Sequence record: NC_028957.1
Source of the DNA: Escherichia phage vB_EcoM_VR26
Length of the DNA: 64,000 bases
Direction: 5' to 3' (one strand)
Made by a program: the position numbers and the translations under genes. Below, piece after piece: positions 1 to 64,000 of the stretch (the stretch's first letter is position 1; each line of letters starts with the position of its first letter). The notes below the pieces were generated by a model. It was given only the letters and a program-made list of their open reading frames with translations, did not search any database and was not told the DNA's origin.

Positions 1-1
1 C

Positions 2-1951
2 AAAGAAACAACGGTCCAAAGCACTGTTGTTCGTAACGCGACGGGTCGTGCGGCGCTGGTTGGTAAATTCCAGTGGGGCCCAGCTTTCCAGGTAACTCAG
101 ATTACAAACGAAGTTGAACTTGTTGATTTGTTTGGTGGTCCGAATAATGAAACAGCAGATTACTTTATGAGTGGGATGAACTTCCTGCAATATGGTAACG
201 ACCTTCGTACTGTACGTGTTGTTAACCGCGACGAAGCTAAAAACGCATCCCCTGTTGCCGGCAATATTGAAACTACCATCGTTACTGCGGGTACAAACTA
301 TGCTGTTGGTGATGTTATCCAGGTTAAGCATAACCAGACGGTCGTTGAACCAGCTGGGCGTGTGACCAAGGTTGATGTTGATGGTAAAATTCTGGCAATC
401 TTTATTCCTACCAATAAGATTATTGCATTTGCTAAAACTATTAATCAGTATCCTAATTTGGGTAGTGCGTGGACTGCAGAAGTTACGACCACTTCTTCTG
501 GTGTATCCGGTACAATCACTGTAGGTAAAATTGTTACCGATTCAGGTATTCTGTTGACCGAAGCAGAAAACAGTGAAGAAGCAATTACTTCTCTGGAATT
601 CCAGGCATCTTTAGCCAAATATGCAATGCCAGGTGTTGTTGCTCTTTATCCTGGTGAAATTGGTTCGACTCTTGAAGTTGAAATCGTATCTAAAGCTGAA
701 TTCGAAAAAGGTGCAACTACAAATCTGGATATTTTCCCTGGTGGCGGTACGCGTGCTTCTGTAGCTCGTGCAGTGTTTAACTATGGTCCTCAGTCCGAAA
801 ACCAATATGCAATTATCGTTCGCCGTGATGGTGCAATCGTCGAAAACGTTGTTCTATCTACTAAGCAGGGCGAAAAAGATGTTTACGGTAATAATATTTA
901 CCTGGATGACTACTTTGCAAAAGGTACTTCCAACTACATCTATGCAACATCTCGTAACTGGCCTGTAGGCTTCAGTGGTATTATCAATCTGTCGGGTGGT
1001 ATTTCTGCAAACGATAAGATTACTGCTGGTGATTTGATGCAAGGTTGGGACCTGTTCGCTGACCGCGAAGCTCTGCATATTAACTTGCTTATCGCTGGCG
1101 CGGTCGCTGGTGAAGGTGATGCAACTGCTTCCACTGTTCAGAAGCACGTAGTTTCTATTGCTGACGAACGTCAGGATTGTCTGGCATTCATTTCTCCTCC
1201 GAAAGGGTTGTTGGTTAACGTTCCTCTGACCCGTGCAGTGGATAACCTGATTGACTGGCGTACAGGTGGTGGTACATTCGATACTGATAACATGAATATC
1301 AGCACGACTTATGCAGCGATTGATGGCAACTATAAATATCAGTATGATAAATATAACGACGTTAACCGTTGGGTTCCTCTGGCAGCTGATATGGCTGGTC
1401 TGTGTGCTCGTACTGATGATGTTTCTCAGCCTTGGATGTCTCCGGCTGGTTATAACCGTGGTCAGATTTTGAACGTTCTGAAATTGGCTGTTGAGCCTCG
1501 TCAGACCCAGCGTGACCGCATGTATCAAGAAGCTATCAACCCGGTTGTTGGTTTCGCAGGTGGTGATGGTTTTGTTCTGTATGGTGATAAGACTGCAACT
1601 AAAGTTCCATCTCCGATGGACCATATTAACGTTCGCCGTCTTACGAATATGCTGAAGAAAAATATCGGTGACGCATCCAAATATAAACTGTTTGAGCTTA
1701 ACGATAACTTCACTCGTGCATCATTCCGTATGGAAACTTCTCAATACTTGGATGGTATTCGCGCGCTTGGTGGCATTTATGAAGGTCGTGTGGTTTGTGA
1801 TACTACTAACAACACCCCGTCGGTCATAGACCGAAATGAGTTTGTTGCTAGCATATATTATAAGCCTGCAAGGTCGATAAATTATATCGTGCTTAATTTC
1901 GTAGCAACAAGTACGGGCGCTGATTTTGATGAGTTGATTGGGGTGCAATAA
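2..1951 (+). CDS. 18: Tail sheath protein gp18 (5-prime partial; gene begins upstream of window)
   Basis: Frame 2 is open from nt 2 (KETTVQSTVVRNATG...GKFQWGPAFQ); matches remembered T4 gp18 N-terminal region (ETADYFMSAMNFLQYGNDLR) and length class; track start at 128 is an internal TTG. Confidence 0.93.
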   Translation, partial: KETTVQSTVVRNATGRAALVGKFQWGPAFQVTQITNEVELVDLFGGPNNETADYFMSGMNFLQYGNDLRTVRVVNRDEAKNASPVAGNIETTIVTAGTNYAVGDVIQVKHNQTVVEPAGRVTKVDVDGKILAIFIPTNKIIAFAKTINQYPNLGSAWTAEVTTTSSGVSGTITVGKIVTDSGILLTEAENSEEAITSLEFQASLAKYAMPGVVALYPGEIGSTLEVEIVSKAEFEKGATTNLDIFPGGGTRASVARAVFNYGPQSENQYAIIVRRDGAIVENVVLSTKQGEKDVYGNNIYLDDYFAKGTSNYIYATSRNWPVGFSGIINLSGGISANDKITAGDLMQGWDLFADREALHINLLIAGAVAGEGDATASTVQKHVVSIADERQDCLAFISPPKGLLVNVPLTRAVDNLIDWRTGGGTFDTDNMNISTTYAAIDGNYKYQYDKYNDVNRWVPLAADMAGLCARTDDVSQPWMSPAGYNRGQILNVLKLAVEPRQTQRDRMYQEAINPVVGFAGGDGFVLYGDKTATKVPSPMDHINVRRLTNMLKKNIGDASKYKLFELNDNFTRASFRMETSQYLDGIRALGGIYEGRVVCDTTNNTPSVIDRNEFVASIYYKPARSINYIVLNFVATSTGADFDELIGVQ

Positions 1952-1957
1952 TAAATT

Positions 1958-1983
1958 AGGGGATGAAAGTCCCCTTATCTATT
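1958..1983 (+). terminator. Hairpin terminator after gene 18 (AGGGGA-tgaaag-TCCCCT then T-rich)
   Basis: Perfect 6-bp stem with 6-nt loop immediately after the gp18 stop. Confidence 0.6.
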
Positions 1984-2034
1984 ATGGTTGAGTGTAATTG
2001 CTTAACGAAATAGCTTAGACCCATTATACCGTGT

Positions 2035-2042
2035 TATAAATA
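2035..2042 (+). promoter_or_regulatory. T4-type late promoter TATAAATA
   Basis: Exact TATAAATA between gp18 terminator and downstream genes. Confidence 0.6.
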
Positions 2043-2043
2043 A

Positions 2044-2844
2044 AAGCATAAGGCTCCTATAAACGATTATAGAGCACGCAACCTTTAAGTAAGGTGTTTA
2101 TACATAACACGGATAAAATCGTCCCAGAATCGTTCTGGTGTGTGATTTGAGGCTACTATGATAGTAAGTGATAAACAACTCGTTAATGTAACAAACAGAA
2201 ATGTGACAAATTTGCGTGAGCAAGGTTATGACGTTTTAATCGGAACAAAACATTTGGTGAAAATCGAGCATTTAGGTAAGCGAACTAAAATCGATTGCAA
2301 ATGTGATAAATGTGGTGATGAATACACTGTCACCCAAGATAAAATAAACGAAATCAATATCCAATTCTGCAAAAGCCATAGATGGGAAATTTATTCGGAT
2401 TTGCGTAAAGAATTTTGGAACACACCGGATGGACTAAAAATTCGAAAATCTAAAGGTGCAAAAATCTCCAAAGCCAAAAAGGGTATTCCTTGTATAAATA
2501 CACGCGGGGAATTAAATGGACGATATAATCCGAGATTACGAGAATTTAAACGGTATGCATATGCAGTTCGACAATTCACCGCGTTAAATTTTAAATCTGA
2601 AGTCGAAAATCTCCCAAATTTTGAAAAGACCGGGCGGGCTGGAATTGACGGTGCATATCAGTTAGACCACAAGGTTTCCATTAAATATGGATTTGAAAAT
2701 AATATAGACCCCTCAATCATTGGACATATTTTAAATCTTGAAATGATTCCGTGGGAATTGAATCGAGCAAAGGATATAAATAATAGTATATCAATTCTCG
2801 ATTTACAAAAATATATAGAAAATTATCATAGGAAACAATAACTT
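2044..2844 (+). mobile_element. Putative freestanding homing endonuclease insertion between genes 18 and 19
   Basis: Genes 18 and 19 are adjacent in T4; here a 684-bp HNH-like ORF sits between the late promoter and gene 19. Confidence 0.45.
2158..2841 (+). CDS. HNH-family (Mob-like) homing endonuclease, putative
   Basis: 227 aa; Cys cluster CKCDKCGDEY...CKSH (zinc-finger-like) and HNN-type motif QLDHKVSIKYGFENN...NLEMIPWELNRAK; ATG with GAGG Shine-Dalgarno. Confidence 0.6.
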   Translation: MIVSDKQLVNVTNRNVTNLREQGYDVLIGTKHLVKIEHLGKRTKIDCKCDKCGDEYTVTQDKINEINIQFCKSHRWEIYSDLRKEFWNTPDGLKIRKSKGAKISKAKKGIPCINTRGELNGRYNPRLREFKRYAYAVRQFTALNFKSEVENLPNFEKTGRAGIDGAYQLDHKVSIKYGFENNIDPSIIGHILNLEMIPWELNRAKDINNSISILDLQKYIENYHRKQ

Positions 2845-3336
2845 ATGGAACTTACAGATATCACCAGAGCCTTCGAGTCGGGTGACTTTGCTCGCCCTAA
2901 CCTGTTCGAAGTCGAAATCCCATTCCTGGGTAAAAACTTTGCTTTCCATTGTAAAGCAGCCCCGATGCCAGCAGGCATTGTAGAAAAAGTACCAGTTGGT
3001 TACATGAACCGTAAAATCAACGTTGCGGGAGACCGTACATTTGATGACTGGACTATTACGATTTATAACGACGATGCTCATAAAGTTCGTCAAGCAATTG
3101 TTGATTGGCAAAATATGTGTCACGGTATGACCAACGAAATTACCGGTGCAGCTCCTGCTGATTATAAGAAAACCGCTACTGTTCGCCAGTTCCATCGTGA
3201 TGGCAAGACCGTTACTAAAGAAGTTGTTATCACCGGCATGTGGCCAACTAACGTTGGGGAAGTCCAGATGGATTGGGACAGTAATAATGAGATTGAGACA
3301 TTTGAAACAACGTTTGCAATTGACTGGTGGGAATAA
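2845..3336 (+). CDS. 19: Tail tube protein gp19
   Basis: 163 aa, same length and near-identical to remembered T4 gp19 (MELTDITRAFESGDFARPNLFEV...). Confidence 0.95.
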   Translation: MELTDITRAFESGDFARPNLFEVEIPFLGKNFAFHCKAAPMPAGIVEKVPVGYMNRKINVAGDRTFDDWTITIYNDDAHKVRQAIVDWQNMCHGMTNEITGAAPADYKKTATVRQFHRDGKTVTKEVVITGMWPTNVGEVQMDWDSNNEIETFETTFAIDWWE

Positions 3337-13487: not shown

Positions 13488-15014
13488 ATGACACAAACTA
13501 CAGGTGAAAAAGAAGGCGTATTTTACGGTTATTCTCTTTATGATTTGAATAAAGAAAAACTAATAACTTTTGATGAATTACTTACGGGTATTCAAGGAGA
13601 GCCCGGAGAAAATGGCGATATTGGACCAAAAGGCCCTATTGGTTTAACAGGTCCTCAAGGACCGAAAGGTGATATCGGGTCAAAAGGTATTAAAGGTGAT
13701 ACAGGTCCTCAAGGTATTCAAGGGCCCGCTGGCCCACAAGGTCCTCAGGGAGAAAAGGGAGTCCAAGGTTTAGCTGGAGTCCAAGGCATTCAAGGACCAG
13801 TCGGCCACCAAGGAGTGAAAGGTGATACCGGCCCTCAAGGTATTCAAGGACCGAAAGGTGATACAGGAGCACAAGGCCCACAAGGTGACAAAGGCGAAAT
13901 GGGTCCGGTGGGTCCGGCTGGTCTAACATGGAAAGGAACATGGGACGCTGATGTAGAGTATTCTATAAATGAGGCTGTCGGATATGGTGGTTCTTTATAT
14001 TTCGCCAAAACAAAAGTTCCTAATGGCGAAATACCAACACCGACTTCTAACTATTGGGGTGTTTTGGCTACCGAGGGTCCACAAGGTCCACAAGGTCAAC
14101 AAGGTCTTAAAGGTGATACCGGTCCTCAAGGTATTCAAGGACCTGTAGGGCCTGTAGGGCCGCAGGGTATTCAGGGACCAAGAGGACTTCAAGGGTCAGA
14201 AGGTGAAATAGGACCGCGGGGTATTCAAGGGCTAAAAGGCGAAACTGGGCCCGCTGGTCCACAGGGTATTCAAGGGCTAAAAGGCGAGGTGGGTGCTCAG
14301 GGTCCTTCTGGTTCTCCTGGACTTACAGGACCAGAAGGACCTCGTGGGTTAACAGGCGAAGCTGGAGCTCAAGGACCTCGTGGTGCTATAGGTCCTATCG
14401 GTTTAACAGGTCCTATCGGTTTAACGGGTCCTCAAGGTATTCAAGGTCCGAAAGGTGATACAGGTCCTCAAGGCTTACAAGGTCCTCAAGGCTTACGAGG
14501 TATTCAAGGAGCTCCTGGAGTAAAAGGAGAAGCGGGTGCACAAGGTCCGAAAGGTGATACAGGAGCACAAGGTCCTATTGGTTTAACTGGACCTAAAGGT
14601 GATACAGGCCCGAGCCCTTATACTGTTTATAATTATTCTAATGTTGCAACTGGTTATGCTGAAATGGTTATGCCTGGTGTGTCATCAAACACAGTATTTA
14701 GACTTCGTTCAGTTGGAACTAATATAGAATATAGTGTTCTAAGTAAAGGCGGAGCTAATAGATATGTAGATTGGCACTTTTCAATTCCAAGTGTTTCCGG
14801 CAATACAGTAAGTACTAATAGCGGAACTAATACATTAACTCCTACAGGTAATTTTACTATTGTGGCGACCGCTTATAATGGACTAAGGGGATTTACAATA
14901 ACATTATGCGAGTGGGGTTCAAGAGCTATTGTTGATATCACTGTTTATCATCATGGGCGTTCGGGAGACACAACCAAAGCTGTGGCTATTCGTATGACTA
15001 CTACAAAATACTAA
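13488..15014 (+). CDS. Collagen-like triple-helix repeat protein with carbohydrate-binding-like insert and C-terminal globular domain
   Basis: 508 aa; two Gly-X-Y tracts (37 and 60 triplets) separated by a W.GTW....Y..N..V.Y.GS.Y insert resembling CBM5/12-type motifs; about 130-aa non-repetitive C-terminal domain; GGAGG Shine-Dalgarno. Confidence 0.85.
   Translation: MTQTTGEKEGVFYGYSLYDLNKEKLITFDELLTGIQGEPGENGDIGPKGPIGLTGPQGPKGDIGSKGIKGDTGPQGIQGPAGPQGPQGEKGVQGLAGVQGIQGPVGHQGVKGDTGPQGIQGPKGDTGAQGPQGDKGEMGPVGPAGLTWKGTWDADVEYSINEAVGYGGSLYFAKTKVPNGEIPTPTSNYWGVLATEGPQGPQGQQGLKGDTGPQGIQGPVGPVGPQGIQGPRGLQGSEGEIGPRGIQGLKGETGPAGPQGIQGLKGEVGAQGPSGSPGLTGPEGPRGLTGEAGAQGPRGAIGPIGLTGPIGLTGPQGIQGPKGDTGPQGLQGPQGLRGIQGAPGVKGEAGAQGPKGDTGAQGPIGLTGPKGDTGPSPYTVYNYSNVATGYAEMVMPGVSSNTVFRLRSVGTNIEYSVLSKGGANRYVDWHFSIPSVSGNTVSTNSGTNTLTPTGNFTIVATAYNGLRGFTITLCEWGSRAIVDITVYHHGRSGDTTKAVAIRMTTTKY
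13596..13928 (+). repeat. Collagen Gly-X-Y coding triplet array 1 (37 triplets)
   Basis: Uninterrupted GXY repeats with recurring GPQGIQG/GDTGPQG units. Confidence 0.9.
14076..14615 (+). repeat. Collagen Gly-X-Y coding triplet array 2 (60 triplets, includes tandem GPIGLTGPIGLTGP)
   Basis: Uninterrupted GXY repeats; direct DNA repeat ggtcctatcggtttaac x2 near 14390. Confidence 0.9.
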
Positions 15015-15023
15015 GGAGCTTTA

Positions 15024-15887
15024 ATGGAACCGGTTAAAGCTGTGTTAGAGCCTGATGTAATAGATGTGGAATATGGTAATACATACTCGGCTACTGTAAC
15101 TCTGTCTCCTATAGAAAATATTCCAGATGGTTCCGTGATAAGATATGATTGGGTTGTTAATAACAAGTTCGTTGGTACGGGTGAAGCTACTCGTACCACC
15201 CAACCATCTCAGACCGGAAATTATGTATTATCATGTAGAGTATTCATTACTCCGCCTAATGAAAATACTGTAATGGTAACAACTAATAAATCATATGGGT
15301 ATGTATATAAAAATTCCGATACAAGTCCAGTAGATGCAGAAATATTATATGATAACAAGATATACCAAGTAGGAAGCAAAGTTAGATTATTAGCCGTTGC
15401 CAATAACCCAGATACCAACTTTGTTAAAGGTATTATATGGAAGGATGCTGATGGTAAGATAATAGGTATAGGTCGGGAATATATCCATACAATGCAATCA
15501 GAGTATGATATAGTTCGAGCTAAAGTTACAATGGATTCGCCTATAAGAGATGAATTTAGTAAGAACTTTACTATACATTTGTACGCTATAAATGTTCAAG
15601 AAGGAACATGTATAAGATATATTCATCCTTTAGACCACAGGGATGCAGGATTTATCTGGTGTGGTTGGTGGGTTATGGATGAAATCCAACGAGCGATAAA
15701 ACTTGGGCTGGATTGGAAAAATCCAAAAGAGCTAGATTTAAATTACAAGTGTGATTTAGAGACATTAGCGTTATTGCTCAAGACATATCCTGAAGCCGAA
15801 GTTCAAGAATCAAGACACGGATATATAATAACCAGACTACAAATTGAGACTGGCGGAATATATGAAAAACCATATGAAGTAAAATAA
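15024..15887 (+). CDS. Hoc-like decoration protein paralog (Ig-like N-terminal region plus Hoc-type capsid-binding C-terminal domain)
   Basis: 287 aa; C-terminal HPLDHRDAGFIWCGWWVMDEIQ...YPEAEVQESRHGYII matches Hoc C-terminus (YVHPLP...YIWCGWWVMD...YPEVDVQESRNG); AGGAG Shine-Dalgarno; 9 nt after collagen-like gene. Confidence 0.8.
   Translation: MEPVKAVLEPDVIDVEYGNTYSATVTLSPIENIPDGSVIRYDWVVNNKFVGTGEATRTTQPSQTGNYVLSCRVFITPPNENTVMVTTNKSYGYVYKNSDTSPVDAEILYDNKIYQVGSKVRLLAVANNPDTNFVKGIIWKDADGKIIGIGREYIHTMQSEYDIVRAKVTMDSPIRDEFSKNFTIHLYAINVQEGTCIRYIHPLDHRDAGFIWCGWWVMDEIQRAIKLGLDWKNPKELDLNYKCDLETLALLLKTYPEAEVQESRHGYIITRLQIETGGIYEKPYEVK
15657..15679 (+). repeat. 23-bp perfect inverted repeat, arm 1 (TGGTGTGGTTGGTGGGTTATGGA, encodes WCGWWVMD)
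   Basis: Exact reverse complement present at about 16112..16134 inside hoc. Confidence 0.85.
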
Positions 15888-19759: not shown

Positions 19760-19870
19760 CTATTTAGTGCTCTTCATTGCTGTGGCTTTTGCTTTCAATT
19801 CATTAACAATTTTGGTTATTCGGTTTGCAGAGATAACCATCTCGTCAAGAATCTTACTAATATTTTTCAT
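19760..19870 (-). CDS. Possible micro-ORF (36 aa)
   Basis: ATG immediately after stop of upstream gene; MKNISKILDEMVISANRITKIVNELKAKATAMKSTK; weak support. Confidence 0.25.
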   Translation of the reverse strand: MKNISKILDEMVISANRITKIVNELKAKATAMKSTK

Positions 19871-20104
19871 TTAACTTTCCTTAAAGTATCTCATACCAGT
19901 ATCTATCCCCATATTGTGAGAATAGAATGCATCATCGATGTATCCCGCAAATTTACCTTTAACATAGATAACATCTTCACCACAAGGGTGGTCAGCGCAG
20001 ATACGAATATCTGCACGATTCAATTTCCATTCCTTCATCATATACTTAATTTCTTCTTCGAACTCTTCGTCTTGGTTAAACGCATCGTCGATAGAATATC
20101 GCAT
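19871..20104 (-). CDS. Hypothetical protein (uvsY.-1/-2 position)
   Basis: 77-aa ORF, ATG start overlapping uvsY stop. Confidence 0.5.
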   Translation of the reverse strand: MRYSIDDAFNQDEEFEEEIKYMMKEWKLNRADIRICADHPCGEDVIYVKGKFAGYIDDAFYSHNMGIDTGMRYFKES

Positions 20105-21622: not shown

Positions 21623-21630
21623 TATTTATA
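21623..21630 (-). promoter_or_regulatory. Late promoter TATAAATA (minus) for gene 26
   Basis: Part of palindromic TATTTATAAATA shared with gene 51 promoter. Confidence 0.6.
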
Positions 21631-21634
21631 AATA
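21627..21634 (+). promoter_or_regulatory. Late promoter TATAAATA (plus) for gene 51
   Basis: Overlapping divergent late promoters as in T4 26/51. Confidence 0.6.
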
Positions 21635-47842: not shown

Positions 47843-47875
47843 GTTTTCCTCTATAGTTCAAAAGGGTTGGGAACC

Positions 47876-48121
47876 TTAAATTGACTCTGGCAGTTCCGAA
47901 GACATTTCATCATTATATTCTTCTTCTGACTGGACGGTGATGTCAAAATATGATTGGACGTCACCGGCTGCATCATGACAGTAGACACGTTCATGACGTT
48001 TGGCCAGAAATTTGATTCCGTCAATAGTGATATAAGAATTTGGTGCCGGTAAATCCTGTTCGGTAAATTGCAGCATTTCAAAAATGACTTCGCCGGTCTG
48101 GCGTTTAAATCGTAAATTCAT
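47876..48121 (-). CDS. Hypothetical protein (nrdA.1 position)
   Basis: 81-aa ORF, ATG. Confidence 0.5.
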   Translation of the reverse strand: MNLRFKRQTGEVIFEMLQFTEQDLPAPNSYITIDGIKFLAKRHERVYCHDAAGDVQSYFDITVQSEEEYNDEMSSELPESI

Positions 48122-48180
48122 AATTTCCTCTCATTAAATTTTAAATAATTATATCACAGTGCCCTGAAGCGGAATCGTAT

Positions 48181-48480
48181 TTATGTTCCCAAATCCTCGA
48201 GCGAAAAGGTATCTTTGAAAAGTTTGTTAACGACCAGGGCGATAACATCGCCATGGCATGCTTTTGGTTTGCATGTACAGGCCAATCGCATTCCGCGTAG
48301 GGTTTCTAGGTGTTCTCTTTTGATTTCGCCCGATTTAATCTTTGCTATGAAATATTCTTTAAAGTTCTTTATGTTTTCTTCTCGGGTACCATCTTTATAT
48401 GGGTTTCCCCACATGGTACCCCGTTGAATATTCACATCAAAGTCGGATTGATATTTGTTAACAACCCGACAGGCTTTCAT
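48181..48480 (-). CDS. Hypothetical protein, DUF4326-like
   Basis: 99 aa; GNPY...CTCKPKACHGDV pattern. Confidence 0.45.
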   Translation of the reverse strand: MKACRVVNKYQSDFDVNIQRGTMWGNPYKDGTREENIKNFKEYFIAKIKSGEIKREHLETLRGMRLACTCKPKACHGDVIALVVNKLFKDTFSLEDLGT

Positions 48481-48541
48481 AGTAGGAAGTTAAGTCCGAC
48501 CATTACGACCAGAAATAAAATACCGGCAATTTGAATTTTCA

Positions 48542-48744
48542 TTAGACCTCGACAATAAACCAGATAGACTGGTGTTGGGTTAAATCGTGATATTCATATG
48601 ATTTAATCACACGCATAACATAAAGTTCTTTGTTCTGGACAAAAATCGTTGTTTTCTCTTTAGGCAGCTCATCGAGACTTATATTCATTTTTTCAAACAG
48701 CACCTCACGGGTGCCGTATCTATTGTTTACTATACGAATATTCA

Positions 48745-53066: not shown

Positions 53067-53735
53067 TCAGAGTGATTGAAGCGTTATTTGACAGTTTTTA
53101 ACCGTCTCAATGAAAAGCTTACGAGCTTCAAGAGCATCTATATTTAAGATTTTCTTATAAGCATTTAGTTTGGTTGAATACTTGTCCCAAACCAAATCGT
53201 TAGTCTGTTCATCATGTTTATTTATTATATGCAAAAATGAGTCAAGCAAACAAAACGTTTCAAATGAAATAACATTCGATTGGAGAAGTTTGAAAATATA
53301 ACTTGTGTTCACTTTAGTATTATACTCGAAAATCTCTTGAAGCGATTTGACTTCGACTTTCTTACTGAAGTAATAGATGTTCTTTATATCATCTTCGTAT
53401 ACTTGTTTAATTCTTTTAAGTCTGCCGATGTATTCCCTATAAAATATCAGAGCATCGGCATCACTTATATCACCTATCCATGCATCCTGGTTCGCGACCA
53501 GGTTTGACATGAATATTAACGTTAATTCTTTGAGAGTGTACTTATCGCTAAGCTTTTCGAAAAAATACTTGTCACGACGTTTTTGATAAGCACTATCGGA
53601 GATTCGCATGGTCCAGTTATATTTGATAATATCATAACGACCCGAAAAATGCTGTTTGATGGATAAGTACAGTTGATATACTGATTTACCATTTATGTAT
53701 CGGTTGTTATTTGGAGGCATGCGAATCGTAATCAT
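53067..53735 (-). CDS. 59: Helicase loader gp59
   Basis: 222 aa; near-identical to remembered T4 gp59 (YINGKSVYQLYLSIKQH...ISNLVANQDAWIGDISDADAL). Confidence 0.93.
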   Translation of the reverse strand: MITIRMPPNNNRYINGKSVYQLYLSIKQHFSGRYDIIKYNWTMRISDSAYQKRRDKYFFEKLSDKYTLKELTLIFMSNLVANQDAWIGDISDADALIFYREYIGRLKRIKQVYEDDIKNIYYFSKKVEVKSLQEIFEYNTKVNTSYIFKLLQSNVISFETFCLLDSFLHIINKHDEQTNDLVWDKYSTKLNAYKKILNIDALEARKLFIETVKNCQITLQSL

Positions 53736-55324: not shown

Positions 55325-58300
55325 ATGGCCGATATTTTAAAACCAGCATTCAGAGCAACATCCGGTCTCGATGCTGCTGGTGAGAAAGTCATTAATGTCG
55401 CGAAAGCTGATTACTCAGTTTTGTCAGACGGCGTTAACGTAGATTTCTTTATAGAAGAAAACACAGTTCAACAATATGATGCAACGCGTGGATACAAAAA
55501 GAACTTCGCAGTTATTAATGATAACCGTATTTGGGTTGCTCAACGTGATATTGATGCTCCTGCTGGAGCATTTACCCCTCAGTATTGGTTAGCAACTCGT
55601 ACTGACCCTAAATGGGAAACTGTTGCATCTCCGACTCGTCAGCTTAATTCGGGTGAATTTATCGCAGTTGACTCTGCTGCAAGCTTTACCACATTTACAT
55701 TGCCTACAAACCCGGTCGATGGCGATACCATCGTTATTAAAGATATCGGCGGCAATGTTGGTTACAACGAAATTAAAGTGCAGTCAAGCAACGTACCAGG
55801 CGGCGGTAACCAAAAGATTGTTCGTTTTGGTAATCAGTATTCAGAAGTTTTAATTACCAAACCGTTCTCTTATAATATGCTTATCTTCTCGAATCGCTTA
55901 TGGCAATTCTGGGAAGCTGGCAACGAAGAACGTGGCATCAGAGTAGAACCATCAACTGGTCGTTTCCATGCGCAAGCCGGCGACTTTATTATGCGTCGTT
56001 ATACAACCGGTGCACCGATTACTTTCATTCTTCCTAAGTATGCGAACCAGGGCGATATTGTCAAATCTGTTGATATCGATGGCCTGGGGCCAACATTCCA
56101 CCTGATGGTTGAAACCTTTGACTCCAGTTCCAGTCTTGGTAAAGCTGGACAGCATCAAATGGAATTCCGCACCACGGGCGATGGCTTCTTTGTTTATAAT
56201 GCCGCCGAAAAACTCTGGTATGTTTGGGACGGTGATTTTAAAACTCGTCTTCGCGTTATTCGCGATAACGTTAAACTTTTACCGAACGAAAGTGTCATTG
56301 TATTTGGTGAAGATAACTCAACTCCAGCGACGATTAATATCGATTTGCCAACGGATGTTTTGCAAGGTGACATTGTTAAAATTGCACTGAACTATCTCCG
56401 CAAATCACAGACTGTTAATATAAGAGCTGCTGCTGGTGATAAGATTGCATCTGACATTAAATTGTTGCAATTTCCTAAACGCTCCGAGTATCCACCAGAT
56501 TCAACTTGGGTATTGGTTGATTCATTGACCTTTAATGGTAACATCAGTTATACTCCAGTTATTGAATTGTCTTATGCCGAAGATAAATTGTCTGGAACAA
56601 GTTATTGGGTTGTTGCTCAAAACGTTCCGACTGTTGAGCGAGTTGACTCATTAAATGATTCCACGCGTGCTCGTCTTGGTGTTATTGCTCTGGCAAACCA
56701 GACTCAGGCAAACGTTGACCATGAAAATAACCCAGAAAAAGAACTCGCAATTACTCCTCAGACTTTGGCTAACCGTGTTGCTAAAGAGAACCAACGAGGC
56801 ATTGCCAGAATCGCAACGACTGCCCAAGTAAATCAGAACAGTGATTTTGCATTTGTTGATGATGTAATTATTTCTCCGAAAAAACTCAATGAACGTACGG
56901 CAACAGAAACGAGACGTGGGCTCGCAGAACTCGCCACACAGCAAGAAACTGATGCAGGTGTAGATGATACCACAATTATCACTCCAAAGAAACTGCAAGC
57001 GCGTCAGGGCTCAGAATCGCTGTCCGGTATCGTGACTTACGTCCCGACCACTGGTGCAACTCCAGCTACTTCGCGTGAATTAAATGGTACAAACGTTTAT
57101 AATAAAAATACCACTAATCTGGTAATTTCTCCGAAAGCTCTTGACCAATACAAAGCTACTTACACTCAGCAAGGCGCAGTTATTCTGGCCGTTGAAAGTG
57201 AAGTAATTGCAGGTACATCGCAATCTGGCTGGCCAAACGCTGTTGTTACTCCGGAGATGTTGCATCGTAAAACAGCTCTTGATTCCCGTATCGGTTTAAT
57301 CGAAATTGCTACTCAGACAGAAACAAATGCAGGAACCGATTATACCAGAGCCGTGACTCCTAAAACGTTAAATGACCGTAAAGCATCAGAAACGTTAACC
57401 GGCATAGCCGAGATTGCTACGCAATCAGAATTTGATACTGGAACTGATGATACTCGTATCTCAACTCCATTAAAAGTTAAAACTAGATTTAATAATACTG
57501 CTCGTACTTCTGTTAATGCATTAAGTGGTTTAGTAGAAACAGGGACGCTCTGGGACCATTATAACCTGAATATTCTTGAAGCAAATGAGACACAACGTGG
57601 TACGGCAAGATTAGCAACTCAGGGTGAAGTTAATACCGGTACTGACGATAAAACAATCGTTACTCCGCTTAAATTGATGTCGAAAAAAGCCACTGAAAAT
57701 GCCGAAGGTATTGTTCGCATTGCGACAAACGCAGAAGCGACTGCCGGTACATCGAAAGTTCTGGCCATCAGTCCGTCTGCGCTGAAATATATTGCACAAA
57801 CGGAAACAACCTGGGAAGCATCTGAAACACTGCGTGGATTTGTTCGTTTATCTTCTGGCACAGCTACTTCGGCCGCAACTACAACGACTGGTGCAGGATT
57901 TACATATGAGAATGGTGTATATACCCCGGACCCAAGTAAACTGGTTAACTACGTAAAATCTGGCTATGCAGTTTCGCCTTACGAATTAAACCGCGTATTG
58001 CAAAACTTCTTACCGATAAATGCGATGGCTGTTAATGCCGAAAAACTTGATAGCCTCGATTCAACCCAGTTTATTCGTCGTGATATTGCTCAGACTGTTG
58101 AAGGTGTGTTAACTCTCACCAAACAGACAAATTTATCCGCTCCGGTTGTATCGACGAGCACTGCAGTGTTTACTGATGTAACGGCTGGCACTTCGACGTT
58201 CGGAACTGTGAATGTTGTTAATGGAACCAACAAGTGGAAAATCACTGCTCCTTCCACCGGAACGACAATGACTATTGGCGATACGACTAACGTATTGACA

Positions 58301-59338
58301 TTAAACACTGCCTCGGGCAATGTTGCTGTATTGAACAACCTTAGTGCCGGAAACGATGTTCAAGCCAAAAATAATTACGTTCTAAACGGTCGTACTATTG
58401 CAACCACGACGGGTGAAGCTTCTGGTGCAACTCTGGCCCTGGGTGATAACTCGCAGAATTTAGTGCTCAAAACTCTTGATGCTGGTAATATCATAGCAAA
58501 TGGTGGCGGTGCATTTAAAGTCCTGACCGAGAAAAACGCTGTTGAGATTGTTGATAGAAACTTTGTTAACCAAGCGGGCGATACAATGTCTGGTATGCTC
58601 CGTGTGAATGCTCCGGTCCGTGTATTCGGTACGAAACCAAGTCTTATCGCACAAGCCCCAACTGCGGAAACTGTTGGCTTCTGGTCTGTTGATATTAATG
58701 ATGAACCGACTTACAGTCAGTTCCCCGGTTATTGGACAATGATTTTAAAACGTCAAATAAACATTGATACCGTTCAAACTAAACCGGCCGGTATGTCCGA
58801 TGAAGTTTGGAATAGTTCTGGTTGGTTAACAGAAAACGGCAAGAATGGTAAATTACCCGGTGGACAAGAATTGGGTCCCGATGGACAACCGATTACACCA
58901 CAGCCTCCGGTTGTACCAATTCATTATCGTAAACCAGATGGAACTTTAGGTGACCCAGTTAGTACACCAGAGGCTCCTATACGTGGTACATGGTTTGACT
59001 ATTCAGTTCGTGACAAACAAATTAAATATCCTGGTACATTGACTCAGTTTGGTAATACGCTGGATTCATGCTATCAAGATTGGGTTTGCTATCCTACTGG
59101 ATTAAACGGTGGTACTATTCGTTATACTCGCACATGGCAGAAAAATAAATCAGCCTGGACGACTTTCGCAATGGTTTACACCGCGGATAACCCTCCGTCT
59201 GCAGAGGATGTTGGTGCATTACCGGCGGACAACACAACAATGGGGAACTTGACCATTCTTGATTGGTTACGTATCGGTAACGTGCGTATCATCCCAGACC
59301 CGACCACTAAATCCGTTAAGTTTGAATGGGTTGAATAA
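55325..59338 (+). CDS. 34: Long tail fibre proximal subunit gp34
   Basis: 1337 aa (T4 gp34 1289 aa); N-terminus and internal repeats typical. Confidence 0.95.
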   Translation: MADILKPAFRATSGLDAAGEKVINVAKADYSVLSDGVNVDFFIEENTVQQYDATRGYKKNFAVINDNRIWVAQRDIDAPAGAFTPQYWLATRTDPKWETVASPTRQLNSGEFIAVDSAASFTTFTLPTNPVDGDTIVIKDIGGNVGYNEIKVQSSNVPGGGNQKIVRFGNQYSEVLITKPFSYNMLIFSNRLWQFWEAGNEERGIRVEPSTGRFHAQAGDFIMRRYTTGAPITFILPKYANQGDIVKSVDIDGLGPTFHLMVETFDSSSSLGKAGQHQMEFRTTGDGFFVYNAAEKLWYVWDGDFKTRLRVIRDNVKLLPNESVIVFGEDNSTPATINIDLPTDVLQGDIVKIALNYLRKSQTVNIRAAAGDKIASDIKLLQFPKRSEYPPDSTWVLVDSLTFNGNISYTPVIELSYAEDKLSGTSYWVVAQNVPTVERVDSLNDSTRARLGVIALANQTQANVDHENNPEKELAITPQTLANRVAKENQRGIARIATTAQVNQNSDFAFVDDVIISPKKLNERTATETRRGLAELATQQETDAGVDDTTIITPKKLQARQGSESLSGIVTYVPTTGATPATSRELNGTNVYNKNTTNLVISPKALDQYKATYTQQGAVILAVESEVIAGTSQSGWPNAVVTPEMLHRKTALDSRIGLIEIATQTETNAGTDYTRAVTPKTLNDRKASETLTGIAEIATQSEFDTGTDDTRISTPLKVKTRFNNTARTSVNALSGLVETGTLWDHYNLNILEANETQRGTARLATQGEVNTGTDDKTIVTPLKLMSKKATENAEGIVRIATNAEATAGTSKVLAISPSALKYIAQTETTWEASETLRGFVRLSSGTATSAATTTTGAGFTYENGVYTPDPSKLVNYVKSGYAVSPYELNRVLQNFLPINAMAVNAEKLDSLDSTQFIRRDIAQTVEGVLTLTKQTNLSAPVVSTSTAVFTDVTAGTSTFGTVNVVNGTNKWKITAPSTGTTMTIGDTTNVLTLNTASGNVAVLNNLSAGNDVQAKNNYVLNGRTIATTTGEASGATLALGDNSQNLVLKTLDAGNIIANGGGAFKVLTEKNAVEIVDRNFVNQAGDTMSGMLRVNAPVRVFGTKPSLIAQAPTAETVGFWSVDINDEPTYSQFPGYWTMILKRQINIDTVQTKPAGMSDEVWNSSGWLTENGKNGKLPGGQELGPDGQPITPQPPVVPIHYRKPDGTLGDPVSTPEAPIRGTWFDYSVRDKQIKYPGTLTQFGNTLDSCYQDWVCYPTGLNGGTIRYTRTWQKNKSAWTTFAMVYTADNPPSAEDVGALPADNTTMGNLTILDWLRIGNVRIIPDPTTKSVKFEWVE

Positions 59339-59346
59339 GAGGTAAT

Positions 59347-60477
59347 ATGGAAAAATTTATGGCAGAGTTTGGACAAGGATACGTCCAAACGCCAGTTATA
59401 TCAGAAAATAATGCCGTTAAATTTAAAATGAGTATAGCAGGGAGCTGTACTCTTTCCACGGTGAAATCGTATATCAAATTTCAGGACGAACGAATCGGGC
59501 CAACTACTTTTGGTAATGGTCTGACTCTATTGGAAATTGATACAACTACGAATAAAATTGTTAACACGAAAAACTATTCATTAACCAGCACACACGATGC
59601 AATCAGTCAGGCATTAATTACCTTTGTGGAATCTGTTCCAGCCGGAAGATTAATTGCATTTATTTCTTCCGGTAAGCTAAATGCTTCACAGACATTAATT
59701 GACTGGATGCGATTAAAGGGGTCAAAGGCATTCCCTGAAAAATGGCTAATCGACAAAGTTGACACATCTTACTCGGCATTCTATATCTCTGGTCGAAATG
59801 TAATCGTCTCCGAGCATGTAAAATATAACGATGGCAAATTTGTTGAAGATGTATCCACCCCATTAGAAGTTGTTTATGATACCTTTAGTGATATAGGAGC
59901 AACAGGCTATCCTGTGCGCATAACGGAAGACGAGAGCACGTATTCATCAACAGGTGATGGAACACCAGCCACAATTAAAAGGTTCCCTAGAGAGGACCTG
60001 GTGACTCCTATGGCTGGCTACAACCTTTTGCCTTTGGATATGCTTTATCTGAAGTTTCAGATGTCATTTGATGCTGCTCTGAAAGCCGCTGGGACTGTAA
60101 GGACTTCGGTTCGATTCTTTAAAAGCCCCAGCACCTCTCCTATATCAAATACAAACATCGATATTGCAACAAACGTTCCAGCCGGTGCATGGGCGAGTTT
60201 TGAAAGATATGTCGAGATTCCAGCAGGTGCCGATGGTTTTACAGTAGTAACGTCAAGAACTGTAGCTGTGGGAACTGGGTCAATACGTAATATTGTTATT
60301 GGTGAGATAACCAGAGACGACTCTGCGTTCAAACCAGCTGAATTTGGTGTCAACGGCATAAGGATGTCATATGCAAACGATGCAACAAATACAGGCAATA
60401 CAATTGTAACATTCCCTGATGCACAAGCTCCGCGTGCAGGCAAGATTTATGCAGCCGAACTTCGAGAAAAACAATAA
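59347..60477 (+). CDS. 35: Long tail fibre hinge connector gp35
   Basis: 376 aa; N-terminus MEKFMAEFGQGYVQTP identical to remembered T4 gp35. Confidence 0.92.
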   Translation: MEKFMAEFGQGYVQTPVISENNAVKFKMSIAGSCTLSTVKSYIKFQDERIGPTTFGNGLTLLEIDTTTNKIVNTKNYSLTSTHDAISQALITFVESVPAGRLIAFISSGKLNASQTLIDWMRLKGSKAFPEKWLIDKVDTSYSAFYISGRNVIVSEHVKYNDGKFVEDVSTPLEVVYDTFSDIGATGYPVRITEDESTYSSTGDGTPATIKRFPREDLVTPMAGYNLLPLDMLYLKFQMSFDAALKAAGTVRTSVRFFKSPSTSPISNTNIDIATNVPAGAWASFERYVEIPAGADGFTVVTSRTVAVGTGSIRNIVIGEITRDDSAFKPAEFGVNGIRMSYANDATNTGNTIVTFPDAQAPRAGKIYAAELREKQ

Positions 60478-60498
60478 GGACCTTCGGGTCCTTTTTTC
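60477..60498 (+). terminator. Terminator after gene 35 (AGGACC-ttcg-GGTCCT then TTTTTT)
   Basis: Perfect hairpin with UUCG loop. Confidence 0.75.
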
Positions 60499-60500
60499 GT

Positions 60501-60508
60501 TATAAATA
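60501..60508 (+). promoter_or_regulatory. Late promoter TATAAATA for genes 36-37
   Basis: Exact motif directly after the terminator, 37 nt upstream of gene 36. Confidence 0.65.
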
Positions 60509-60544
60509 TTGAATAATGAATAAGCTGACCGAAGAGGATTTGAA

Positions 60545-61192
60545 ATGGCTGATTTAAAATTAGGTTCAACCGCCGGAGGTTCAGTCCTTTGGCATCAGGG
60601 TAATTTCCCTTTAACACCAGTTAGTAATGATGTATATTACAAAACTTATAAAATTTATTCCGAATATAATAAGCCACAGGCAGTAGATAATGATTTCGTT
60701 TCTAAAGCTCTTGGTGGTAATTATAAAGCAAACGTATATTTCGAACAAGGTCTGACCTTTAACGATTCAAATGGTTATGGCATTAAACTCGGAGCAAGAA
60801 CAGGCGGTGCACCATTTACAGCTTCATTCCGTATAAAAGGTCCGTTTGGTTTCGAAACCGAAACAGGCACGCCATTTGTTATTTTTGACCCCGATACTAC
60901 AACCGGAGCAAAACGTTTTACTGTTATGGGTGATACGCTGGCTCGTCAAGTTTATGATGATTCGGGTCGTGTATTTTCCCCAGGGAACACTCCGTCGAAA
61001 GCTCAAGTTGGTTTAGGAAACGTAACTAACCAGCAACAGGTAGAACTAAATAATAGTACATTACAATCAATGACAGGAAACTTGTCAGCGCCCAATTTTT
61101 TCTCTAGGAACCCTGCATCAGACCCGGCTCACGTGCCTCGTTTTGACCAAATCGTTCTTAAAGACTCCGTACAAGACTTTGGATATTATTAA
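60545..61192 (+). CDS. 36: Long tail fibre distal connector gp36
   Basis: 215 aa; N- and C-termini (MADLKLGSTAGGSVLWHQGNFPL...PRFDQIVLKDSVQDFGYY) match remembered T4 gp36. Confidence 0.92.
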   Translation: MADLKLGSTAGGSVLWHQGNFPLTPVSNDVYYKTYKIYSEYNKPQAVDNDFVSKALGGNYKANVYFEQGLTFNDSNGYGIKLGARTGGAPFTASFRIKGPFGFETETGTPFVIFDPDTTTGAKRFTVMGDTLARQVYDDSGRVFSPGNTPSKAQVGLGNVTNQQQVELNNSTLQSMTGNLSAPNFFSRNPASDPAHVPRFDQIVLKDSVQDFGYY

Positions 61193-61200
61193 GAGGCATT

Positions 61201-64000
61201 ATGGCTACTTTAAAACAAATACAATTTAAAAGAAGTAAAATTGCTGGTGTCCGCCCAACCCCAACTGTATTGGCTGAAGGTGAACTCGCAATTAACTTGA
61301 AAGACCGCTTGTTATTCACAAAGGATGATACCGGAGCTATTATTGACCTTGGTTTTGCTAAAGGTGGCAATATCGATGGTAACGTTATCCATAAAGGCAA
61401 TTACAACCAAACGGGCGATTATACCCTCAATGGCACATTTACCCAGACAGGTAATTTTAATTTAACCGGAATTGCTCGTGTAACTCGTGATATTATTGCT
61501 GCAGGTCAGATAATGACTGAAGGTGGCGAACTGATTTCTAAGAGCGCTTCTACTTCACACCTTCGTTTCTTTGATGGCGATGACCGAGAACGCGGTATTA
61601 TCTTTTCGCCAAATAATGCGGGTCTTACCAATCAAGTAGTTAATATTCGTGTCCAAGACTACGCCGCTGGTAGCGAAAGCACCTACGCGTTTTCAGGCAG
61701 TGGCCTATTTACTTCACCAGAAGTATCAGCATGGAAATCTATTTCTTCGCCACAAATTCTTACCGATAAAGTTATTACCAACGGCAAGAAGGCAGACGAT
61801 TATGACATCTATTCGTTGGCTGACAACACTCCTTTAACCGAAAGCGAAACAGCAATTAATCATCTTCGTGTCATGCGTAATGCCGTTGGTTCTGGTATTT
61901 TCCATGAAGTTAAAGATAATGATGGAATAACTTGGTATGCTGGTGATGGGCTAGAGGCCTATCTATGGTCGTTTACATGGTCTGGTGGATTGAAAGCGGG
62001 TCATTCCATTTCTATAGGCACCCCAGGCGGCCCCAAAGGATATTCCGAATTAGGAACGGCTTCAATTGCCCTCGGTGATAATGGCACCGGATTTAAATGG
62101 CATCAAGATGGATATTTTTTTACGGTAAACAACGGTACAAAAACTTTCCTTTCCGGTCCGGCGGAAACTACTAGTCTTAGAAAAATGGTTATGGGTTATT
62201 CTGTAAATGGTACTGATTTGACAACGCCGCCGGAAGAAAACTATGCCCTGGCAACTGTAGTTACTTACCATGATAATAACGCCTTTGGTGATGGTCAAAC
62301 CCTTTTAGGATATTATCAAGGTGGTAATTACCATCACTATTTCCGTGGTAAAGGTACTACAAACATTAACACCGCCGGCGGATTGTTAGTTACTCCAGGT
62401 AATATTGATGTTGTTGGTGGTTCGGTTAATATCGACGGACGTAGTAATGCTTCTACTGTGCTTTTTAAAGGAAATACTATAGGACATAGTTCAGTTGATA
62501 ATATAGAGCTCAAAGTTTGGGGCGATACTTTTGCTACTGTAGGTGGTACTCGCAAAAACGTAATGGAAACATCTGATGCTACCGGCTGGATGCAGTATAT
62601 TCAGCGAACTACAGCAGGTAAAGTCGAATCTTATTTAAACGGCGCGATGAACATCGTCGAAGGATTAAATGTAGGTCAAGATGCATCCTTAAAACGCAAT
62701 CTGTACGTTTCCAATGAAATTAAAGTTCGCGGTTCTAGTGGACTTCGTATTTGGAACGATAAGTACGGCGTTATTTTCAGGAATTCAGAAGACCAACTAC
62801 ATATTATTCCAACTAATATTAACCAAGGCGAAAGTGGCGGATTAGGTCCATTACGTCCATTGAGTATTACATTAGACACTGGTCTGGTTAAAATTCCCAA
62901 TTTGGCAGCTGGCCAGGTTTCTTTTAGTAGTACAGGCGTATTGGAATTTCCCGCCGGTAATGGCGGCTCTTATGCCAACCAGAACACGGCTAAAGCCCCA
63001 CTGTATCAAACATTAGGTTCGTCGTCGGCTCAAGCATTCTATCCTATTACTAAGCAGAAAAATACTGTTTCGAATGTAACTGTTACTCAAGGTATGGACC
63101 GAACTACAAGTGAATACCGAATTGTTGCTCAAGGCGATTTGCTTGGTGATGGTGATGCTACTGGATTAAAATACTGGCGCTTTACTAAAGAAGGTCACTT
63201 CATAACTCAGAGCCGCTTATATGCTGGTACAGCATTCTTGAACACTGACGGTAACATTGCTGGTTCTATCTGGAACAAATATTCTGGTTCCACTAACCTT
63301 GATGCAGCAGTGAGTACTCGTGTCGGTAAAAGCGGTGATACAATGACCGGAAAATTGACTATTGAGGCTCCGGGTGATGCATTAGTATTGAGAACAACCA
63401 CAGGTAATAGCTCGCATATCCGTTCTGATGTAGGTGGTACAGGTAACTGGTATATAGGCAAAGGCGGCGACGACAATGGTCTAGGTTTCTACAGTTACGC
63501 TACACAAGGTGCTATATACATAACAAATAATGGCGAAATATCTCTCTCTCCTCAAGGTCAAGGAACATTTAATTTTAACAAAGACCGTATTCATATAAAC
63601 GGTACACAATGGACTGCACACCAGGGTGGTGACTGGGCCAGTCAATGGCGTCAAGAAGCTCCTGTGTTTGTGGATTTTGGTAATGTCGGTAATGATAGTT
63701 ATTATCCTATTATTAAAGGAAAATCTGGTATTACTAATGAAGGTTATATATCTGGTGTAGATTTTGGTATGCGCCGTATCACTAATACATGGGCCCAAGC
63801 TATTATCCGTGTTGGTAACCAGGAAAACGGTCATGACCCACAAGCTGTCTACGAATTCCACCATAGTGGTACTTTTTATGCCCCTGGGTTGCTCAAGAGT
63901 AGCAGGGTATCAGCAGGTGGTGGTGACCCCGCCTGGTTAGGGCCGTGTATTGTTCTTGGCGATAATGACACAGGTCTAGTTTGGGAATCTGATGGTGTCT
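61201..64000 (+). CDS. 37: Long tail fibre distal subunit gp37 (3-prime partial; continues beyond window)
   Basis: Frame 1 open from ATG 61201 to window end; N-terminus MATLKQIQFKRSKIAG...LAEGELAINLKDR matches remembered T4 gp37; absent from ORF track because no stop in window. Confidence 0.9.
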   Translation, partial: MATLKQIQFKRSKIAGVRPTPTVLAEGELAINLKDRLLFTKDDTGAIIDLGFAKGGNIDGNVIHKGNYNQTGDYTLNGTFTQTGNFNLTGIARVTRDIIAAGQIMTEGGELISKSASTSHLRFFDGDDRERGIIFSPNNAGLTNQVVNIRVQDYAAGSESTYAFSGSGLFTSPEVSAWKSISSPQILTDKVITNGKKADDYDIYSLADNTPLTESETAINHLRVMRNAVGSGIFHEVKDNDGITWYAGDGLEAYLWSFTWSGGLKAGHSISIGTPGGPKGYSELGTASIALGDNGTGFKWHQDGYFFTVNNGTKTFLSGPAETTSLRKMVMGYSVNGTDLTTPPEENYALATVVTYHDNNAFGDGQTLLGYYQGGNYHHYFRGKGTTNINTAGGLLVTPGNIDVVGGSVNIDGRSNASTVLFKGNTIGHSSVDNIELKVWGDTFATVGGTRKNVMETSDATGWMQYIQRTTAGKVESYLNGAMNIVEGLNVGQDASLKRNLYVSNEIKVRGSSGLRIWNDKYGVIFRNSEDQLHIIPTNINQGESGGLGPLRPLSITLDTGLVKIPNLAAGQVSFSSTGVLEFPAGNGGSYANQNTAKAPLYQTLGSSSAQAFYPITKQKNTVSNVTVTQGMDRTTSEYRIVAQGDLLGDGDATGLKYWRFTKEGHFITQSRLYAGTAFLNTDGNIAGSIWNKYSGSTNLDAAVSTRVGKSGDTMTGKLTIEAPGDALVLRTTTGNSSHIRSDVGGTGNWYIGKGGDDNGLGFYSYATQGAIYITNNGEISLSPQGQGTFNFNKDRIHINGTQWTAHQGGDWASQWRQEAPVFVDFGNVGNDSYYPIIKGKSGITNEGYISGVDFGMRRITNTWAQAIIRVGNQENGHDPQAVYEFHHSGTFYAPGLLKSSRVSAGGGDPAWLGPCIVLGDNDTGLVWESDGV

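Follow-up and report, generated by a model that had tools for sequence, protein, structure and literature searches.

Between the tail sheath and tail tube genes (genes 18 and 19) of Escherichia phage vB_EcoM_VR26, a Gaprivervirus-like, T4-type phage, lies an 893 bp segment that we consider likely to be a mobile cassette, with a gene of the ORF19.1/gp19.1 family whose predicted product is a two-domain endonuclease that acts at specific DNA sites (cassette 1952–2844; gene 2158–2841). The cassette was analysed within a 64,000 nt stretch of sequence record NC_028957.1, hereafter the window. An earlier note on this DNA had proposed that a 227-residue open reading frame (ORF) between a late promoter and gene 19 is a freestanding homing endonuclease gene. 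In substance that reading is supported from three sides: (i) the patchy distribution of the gene, (ii) an HNH-like fold in its predicted product, and (iii) recombination footprints at the junction.

A two-domain protein of the ORF19.1 family

The ORF has exactly the coordinates, strand and length that the earlier note had given (Table 1). It is preceded by a Shine-Dalgarno sequence (GAGG, 2149–2152) 5 nt upstream of the ATG, and within its span the opposite strand holds no competing ORF longer than 62 residues. Homologs of the protein exist at 88, 74 and 57% identity. Comparison with the 74%-identical allele (on Logan contig SRR31646604_268570, below L013) gives a ratio of nonsynonymous to synonymous substitution rates (dN/dS) of 0.17 in both domains. 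Judged by these coding signatures, the ORF is a real gene under purifying selection. Its guanine-plus-cytosine content is 33.8%, as compared with 34.3% for the cassette and 41.1% for the whole window.

The protein matches PHROG 5104, a family of unknown function, over residues 1–227 (E 6.5e-73), and tblastn matches T6 ORF19.1, VR7 19.1 and RB3_165 at 31–36% identity over about 80% of the length. By these matches the gene is a member of the ORF19.1/gp19.1 family, which has already been deposited (first for T6) but is uncharacterised. The T6 ORF19.1 record reportedly formed part of work on T-even genomic polymorphism in 1994. The records of these closest relatives label the gene hypothetical, and the literature searched contains no paper treating ORF19.1/gp19.1 or its function, the name matches being Candida genes only. 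An exhaustive profile search of 1.84 billion proteins (clustered at 50% identity) recovered 4,335 cluster representatives at E <= 1e-3, of which 1,881 reach E <= 1e-10.

The location between sheath and tube genes is shared by the window, isolates of several genera and, without exception, the 13 viral contigs with a match to the N-terminal half, very diverged ones included. In Sinorhizobium and Campylobacter phages, a family member again lies 3' of the sheath gene. Relatives with the C-terminal domain only lie elsewhere, either between gp47 and gp46 or downstream of baseplate-wedge genes. A homolog in Acinetobacter phage 133 (recorded with "some similarity to ORF19.1 of T6") interrupts rnlA, which is thereby divided into rnlA-A and rnlA-B. 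Dhakavirus QL01 (L065, 1189–1809 and 2573–3154) has both a 19.1-like gene with a different N-terminal half in the 18–19 spacer and a separately annotated HNH endonuclease gene in the 19–20 spacer, which marks the 18–20 block as a hot spot for endonuclease genes.

The protein divides into an N-terminal zinc-finger domain, a basic disordered linker and a C-terminal nuclease-like domain (Table 1). The cysteine cluster mentioned in the earlier note reads, in the translation, as C47, C49, C52 and C71 plus H74. The zinc ligands are C49 and C52 (CxxC) together with C71 and H74 (CxxH), encoded at 2302–2304, 2311–2313, 2368–2370 and 2377–2379. Pfam family DUF4379 is matched by 11 of 118 family members, and in a PDB profile search mS66 matches the N-terminal zinc finger (E 3.6e-4). 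This finger is presumed to be the DNA-recognition module. The linker, KSKGAKISKAKKG, was considered as a NUMOD3-like element and rejected for want of Pfam support. Other family members have the N-terminal half swapped for resolvase-type or other helix-turn-helix modules, or for DUF7487; by analogy, such beads-on-a-string modularity is typical of phage homing enzymes.

In the C-terminal domain, alignments of 118 and 134 diverse members leave only four invariant columns: D170, H171, N193 and N202. These make up the HNN-type motif that had been picked out from the sequence, all parts of which were found (D170-H171, N193 in NLEMIP, N202 in ELNRAK). An AlphaFold model of residues 117–227, built from the 134-sequence alignment, is of high confidence (predicted local distance difference test, pLDDT, 94.2; predicted template modelling score, pTM, 0.84). 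In the model, strand beta1 (167–171, YQLDH) ends in H171, N193 stands just before beta2 (194–198), and N202 lies on an alpha helix (199–205). This layout is that of the beta-beta-alpha core of a His-Me finger, with His and Asn positioned as expected of the superfamily. An HNH fold is also what structure comparison detects, if only weakly: HNH nucleases rank first in both searches made, and the Foldseek top 20 are nearly all HNH domains. On the basis of motif and modelled fold, rather than of significant homology, the C-terminal domain very probably belongs to the HNH (beta-beta-alpha-Me) superfamily.

Several results weigh against this assignment. Foldseek against the PDB returned nothing significant (best E 0.94), and the C-terminal domain was without a match in a PDB sequence search and in profile searches with 15 and 118 sequences. 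The curated models of Pfam, NCBIfam and PADLOC gave no match to the window protein. HNH_4, the sole nuclease family of Pfam matched by any member, is hit below threshold in 9 of 118 members; it is matched by none of the ten that consist of the C-terminal domain alone, so that Pfam support remains weak. An hhalign comparison with an approximate Cas9 HNH segment reached a probability of 7%, aligning DH with DH and NR.K with NR.K.

That no HNH model is matched significantly, in sequence or by Foldseek, would also suit a protein of another kind, namely a zinc-finger regulator that binds DNA or RNA, perhaps to control late tail-gene expression, and whose C-terminal domain is not a nuclease. Such a role would fit a gene that is embedded among late promoters and overlaps the ribosome-binding site (RBS) of gene 19. 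We nevertheless hold a regulator to be improbable: the invariant tetrad is precisely D-H...N...N and sits on a beta-beta-alpha finger, HNH nucleases lead two independent structure searches, and relatives would not lack, in 22 cases out of 26, a regulator on which gene 19 depended (see below).

The 18–19 cassette and its probable mobility

The isolates nearest to the window phage are the Gapriverviruses VR7, VR25, UPEC01 and SP18, with flank identities of 93–96%. Among 26 distinct Gaprivervirus isolates, 22 have an empty 18–19 junction (span about 1,210 bp), four (VR7, TH57, DK-13 and RZ; span 1,876 bp) carry a second allele, B, and none carries the window allele, here called type A. Allele B is ~35% identical to the window allele and occupies a different position. 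Presence across all relatives, which the earlier note had named as grounds for rejection, is thus not observed. The exact 227-residue protein was found in seven metagenomic contigs, full length in all seven and every time between genes 18 and 19. As a separate observation, the 74%-identical allele on L013 (149–832; synonymous divergence, dS, about 1.1) adjoins a gene 19 that is 94.5% identical to that of the window, which indicates that very diverged alleles circulate among closely related phages.

This distribution also bears on the idea of a packaging-associated HNH protein that assists terminase, in the manner of HK97 gp74 or the GVE2 HNH endonuclease. Although such proteins would offer a role for a phage-encoded HNH domain, we give the idea hardly any credence: 22 of the 26 close relatives lack the gene and still package normally; according to annotation, the nuclease for headful packaging in T4-type phages is gp17; and members of the family turn up at unrelated junctions.

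Genes 18 and 19 are adjacent in T4 (116 nt spacer), as had been stated, and in the insert-less relatives the spacer measures 202–205 bp and contains late promoters at -147 and -60. In the window, the ORF lies between a late promoter and gene 19, as described earlier: gp18 ends at 1951, the TATAAATA octamer was located upstream of the ORF at 2035–2042, and gp19 starts at 2845. The octamer is over-represented in the window, with 17 copies against 4.35 expected from shuffles (no shuffle attained 17), and three copies fall inside 750 nt at the cassette. Homology to VR7 and VR25 ends at the gene 18 stop codon and restarts exactly at the gene 19 ATG; the block at 2016–2051 is the only part of the 893 bp that is still homologous to the spacer of insert-less relatives. 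Judged from these boundaries, the ORF was not simply inserted; rather, the 18–19 spacer is replaced over its full length. The ORF stop and the gene 19 ATG are 3 nt apart, and no gene is split in the window.

The two alleles differ in what they do to the promoters of gene 19. In VR7 and DK-13, the ~35%-identical allele is situated upstream of both native late promoters, which remain intact. The window allele lies downstream of the first promoter, and both the second promoter and the native RBS of gene 19 are overwritten, so that the cassette supplies substitutes from its own coding sequence: TATAAATA at 2775, which probably replaces the native -60 late promoter, and AGGAAA at 2830–2835, the gene 19 Shine-Dalgarno sequence. 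The 21 nt junction that includes the latter, ATAGGAAACAATAACTTATGG, is identical in Serratia phage 4S despite an ORF identity of only 56%.

An inactive, decaying homing-gene remnant could be retained for these signals alone, given that an essential gene has its -70 TATAAATA and its Shine-Dalgarno sequence within the cassette, and that deletion of the cassette would be costly. We judge this very improbable in view of the dN/dS of 0.17 in both domains, the full-length ORF in seven contigs, and the intact catalytic tetrad.

Alignment of the junction with insert-less relatives—a check recommended in the earlier note—revealed sharp cassette edges and recombination footprints on both sides. The 893 bp cassette is 99.4% identical between the window and four metagenomic phage contigs. 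The gene 18 sequence next to it is only 87.6% identical over 1,800 nt in two contigs, with 12–17 mismatches in its last 100 nt. An end-of-gene comparison shows the final ~17 nt of gene 18 (the GGGGTGCAATAA end) to be common to all type-A carriers.

On the other side, the first 39 nt of gene 19 (its tip) are 74% identical to VR7, VR25 and UPEC01, while the remainder of the gene is 97–99% identical. In an alignment with VR7 over 1,056 nt, 10 of the 30 differences fall within the first 36 nt of gene 19, all of them synonymous (binomial P = 9e-8). Against UPEC01, identity rises from 74% (nt 1–39) to 99.1% (nt 40–492). The comparison with carrier vB_EcoM_005 shows the reverse of this same-genus, non-carrier pattern: 90% in nt 1–39 and 84% in nt 40–492. 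When the first 60 nt were searched against the whole phage collection, the best matches after SP18 were mostly phages from other genera that carry this ORF subfamily (vB_EcoM_005, Gravdalen, CHI14 and X20), and these outrank the same-genus non-carriers. From this pattern of identity, the gene 19 tip most plausibly marks a recombination breakpoint or the point at which a co-conversion tract ended.

Not all observations fit a homing cassette equally well. SP18 is insert-less and yet has a window-like gene 19 tip (36 of 39 nt), so that the silent-site allele is not exclusive to carriers; a reading of the tip as a carrier-exclusive immunity allele is at odds with this isolate. SP18 could be a resistant or an ex-carrier lineage. 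An RBS-sequestering leader structure, known from some T4 homing genes, was not significant upstream of the ORF (fold z = -0.83). Further, ordinary recombination in a plastic spacer could in principle yield the same mosaic.

The last point can be developed into a full alternative, in which ordinary recombination in a hyperplastic spacer, homologous or illegitimate, is all that has moved the cassette, and the nuclease, which binds DNA but does not drive its own copying, has a non-homing role, such as excluding or degrading the DNA of co-infecting phages, or counter-defence. Spacers of T4-type phages are recombination hot spots, the gene 18 mosaic exists irrespective of the cassette, SP18 has the tip without the gene, and the target site invoked for homing is a candidate only. 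We consider the alternative unlikely all the same, on four counts: (i) even in distant subfamilies, members that share the N-terminal domain, and only these, are found again at this junction, (ii) a homolog splits rnlA in phage 133, (iii) cassette identity far exceeds flank identity, and (iv) a defence role finds no PADLOC or other defence-related match.

For a mobile cassette with a site-specific endonuclease, the following course of events may be proposed. Transcription of the gene would be late and start from the promoter at 2035. During a mixed infection, the zinc-finger half of the protein would bind the sheath–tube junction of a relative without the cassette; the target site would probably be within, or close to, the first ~40 nt of gene 19. 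The HNN finger would then nick or cut the DNA, with H171 as the general base and D170 and N202 as metal ligands, as the fold suggests. T4-type recombination-dependent repair would copy the cassette, along with some tens of bases from genes 18 and 19 on either side, into the cut genome, consistent with breakpoints at the gene 18 end and in the gene 19 tip. Once established, clean cassette loss would likely be costly to the phage, since the cassette carries the proximal promoter and RBS of gene 19.

Table 1. Features of the 18–19 region of the window (all on the + strand).
Feature	Position	Strand	Basis or remark
Gene 18 (tail sheath), 3' portion, left flank	1..1951	+	Pfam sheath domains, E 1e-38; the first base of the window is ~28 nt inside the gene
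Type-A cassette, entire replaced 18–19 spacer	1952..2844	+	893 bp; no VR7/VR25 homology besides the promoter block
Terminator-like GC hairpin with T-rich tail, just 3' of gene 18	1958..1975	+	fold z-score of region -2.15
Native-spacer remnant, 35 bp block with octamer	2016..2051	+	blastn, 94% to VR25, 89% to VR7
Late-promoter octamer TATAAATA	2035–2042	+	810 nt upstream of gene 19 ATG
Leader hairpin (2124–2138) and Shine-Dalgarno sequence (2149–2152)	2124..2152	+	fold z = -0.83
ORF19.1-family gene, putative freestanding homing endonuclease	2158..2841	+	ATG, 227 residues; PHROG 5104, homologs, dN/dS
N-terminal domain (residues 1–101), beta-rich, DUF4379-like treble-clef zinc finger	2158..2460	+	Pfam, PDB profile, model pLDDT
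Basic disordered linker (residues 102–116)	2461–2505	+	low model confidence
Internal TATAAATA within ORF	2493..2500	+	352 nt upstream of gene 19
C-terminal nuclease-like domain (residues 117–227)	2506..2838	+	conservation, model pLDDT 94.2, structure searches
Invariant codon D170	2665–2667	+	
Invariant codon H171	2668–2670	+	
Invariant codon N193	2734–2736	+	
Invariant codon N202	2761–2763	+	
Internal TATAAATA, KDINNS codons	2775..2782	+	70 nt upstream of gene 19; kept in the 74% allele (L013)
21 nt junction ATAGGAAACAATAACTTATGG	2828..2848	+	ORF end, stop 2839–2841, AGGAAA 2830–2835, gene 19 ATG
Gene 19 (tail tube), right flank	2845..3336	+	PF06841; PHROG tail tube, E 4e-65
Gene 19 tip, breakpoint or candidate target-site region	2845..2883	+	10 synonymous differences from VR7/VR25/UPEC01 in 39 nt

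Other sites in the window and wider meaning

The earlier note had also remarked that the endonuclease sites known from T4 (segD, segE, mobE and the intron sites) are empty here, and this was borne out: the window is colinear with VR7 across 23–24, inh–uvsW and nrdB–nrdA with no extra gene, and td is an uninterrupted ORF of 286 residues. Two further endonuclease genes of VR7, ORF236w (MobE-like HNH, beside pseT) and 32.1 (SegG-like GIY-YIG, beside gene 32), are absent from the window (at ~39478 and ~53067–53096). The window phage and VR7 consequently differ at three endonuclease sites in 64 kb.

Two spacers are longer than in VR7. The nrdA–td spacer (47853–48735) measures 883 bp as compared with 112 bp, and contains two minus-strand ORFs of unknown function, at 47876–48121 (81 residues, PHROG 2458) and 48181–48480 (99 residues, PHROG 464). 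We considered this spacer as the site of another homing gene, and rejected it on the grounds that it holds these small ORFs instead. The uvsY.-2/uvsY segment (19775–20101) measures 327 bp as compared with 87 bp, with a 77-residue minus-strand ORF at 19871–20104 (PHROG 1541, unknown function).

Further differences from VR7 concern structural genes. Gene 18 is itself mosaic (1–1400): its 5' two-thirds are about 85–89% identical to VR7 and contig L014, with 15–30 mismatches per 100 nt, its 3' quarter is about 96% identical, and this mosaicism is independent of the cassette. Positions 13634–15880 have no megablast homology to VR7, which carries ORF196w (a collagen-repeat protein) and ORF197w (Hoc-like) there; the head-decoration module is replaced. 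From 57737 to 64000, similarity to VR7 collapses in the long-tail-fibre genes (distal gene 34 onward, including genes 35–37), as expected of host-range modules. Finally, two overlapping TATAAATA octamers lie on opposite strands (21623–21634); colinearity with VR7 places them about 1.5 kb downstream of uvsY. Their arrangement suggests back-to-back divergent late promoters, and the location is probably the gene 26/gene 51 divergent junction.

A broader reading of the family may be offered tentatively. The ORF19.1 family could be a very large, unrecognised His-Me-finger homing clade (at least 4,335 clusters) of reversed domain architecture, in which one lineage tracks the sheath–tube junction across T4-like subfamilies; the window allele would have taken over the promoter and RBS of gene 19, resulting in an addiction-like retention. 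If the take-over is real, it shows a selfish gene entangled with an essential host gene.

Several consequences follow for annotation and for experiment. In T-even genomes, a gene listed as "hypothetical" ever since the deposition of T6 ORF19.1 gains a putative label, that of a zinc-finger and HNH-like mobile nuclease; no Pfam, NCBIfam, PHROG or PADLOC model calls the family a nuclease, despite thousands of relatives. The sheath–tube junction emerges as a candidate recurrent homing site across T4-like phages. Within one genus, this junction exists in three states—empty, with allele B upstream of the promoters, and with allele A downstream of the first promoter—and so provides a natural system for crosses. 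Cassettes of this sort drive marker exclusion and mosaicism in structural modules, which makes them relevant to phage engineering and to the genomics of phage therapy.

Comparison with known systems

The earlier note had compared the gene with the freestanding Mob and Seg endonucleases. The window protein belongs to neither family: Pfam returned no HNH_3, NUMOD or GIY-YIG match for it. A relation to Mob was rejected on an hhalign probability of 1% against the MobE-like VR7 ORF236w, with no Pfam family in common; ORF236w matches Pfam NUMOD3 and, weakly, Pfam HNH, while the window ORF matches neither. A relation to Seg (GIY-YIG) was rejected likewise, with no Pfam GIY-YIG match at E <= 1 and none among the structure matches. 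The likeness to T4 MobA–MobE is one of lifestyle and general composition: these, too, are freestanding genes in spacers of conserved genes, patchy in distribution, with an HNH-type motif and a separate DNA-binding module (PMC2988022, PMC2790892). They differ in that the HNH domain comes first in Mob proteins and the DNA-binding region occupies the C-terminal part (PMC2988022), whereas the HNH-like domain of the window protein is C-terminal, and there is no detectable sequence relation.

A similar comparison can be made with I-TevIII, encoded in the nrdB intron of the T-even phage RB3, which combines an N-terminal HNH catalytic domain with two C-terminal CX2CX12-13HX3C zinc fingers for DNA binding (PMC1865063). 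In contrast to this intron-encoded enzyme, the window gene is freestanding, and its product has one treble-clef-like finger at the N-terminus and the nuclease domain at the C-terminus. With the finger N-terminal and the nuclease motif at residues 170–202 of 227, the domain order is opposite to that of both Mob and I-TevIII.

The nearest structural neighbours, all at sub-significant scores, are HNH domains of the Cas9/McrA type (HNH_4), and small phage HNH nickases, namely Gme HNH (4h9d), GVE2 HNH (5h0o) and T5 SciA, which share the D-H...N...N(R.K) signature. In the window domain, unlike these, a helical insert of 22 residues separates beta1 from beta2, and the flanking CxxC zinc site is missing.

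Hef and I-Bth0305I resemble the predicted enzyme in being unconventional freestanding homing enzymes of T4-related phages, and in LIMEstone1 a "Hef-like" gene has been reported beside the tail tube gene (PMC3296691). A Hef/Vsr-like (EDxHD) nuclease was rejected for the window protein: no Vsr or PD-(D/E)xK fold is among the structure matches, and a comparison with F379_132 aligns the CxxC knuckle only. The rnlA-A/homolog/rnlA-B order of phage 133 is a genes-in-pieces arrangement, as cited for mobE in the nrdA gene of Aeh1 in PMC3322345.

Closest of all are the ORF19.1 genes of the T6, VR7 and RB3 type, which share with the window gene the 18–19 locus and the layout of a zinc finger followed by D-H...N...N. 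Those of VR7 and DK-13 differ from it as a highly diverged allele, placed upstream of intact native promoters. A freestanding, HNH-like homing gene in a T4-type phage is of a familiar kind; what is new is the annotation insight for a large orphan family, and a junction that occurs in three states.

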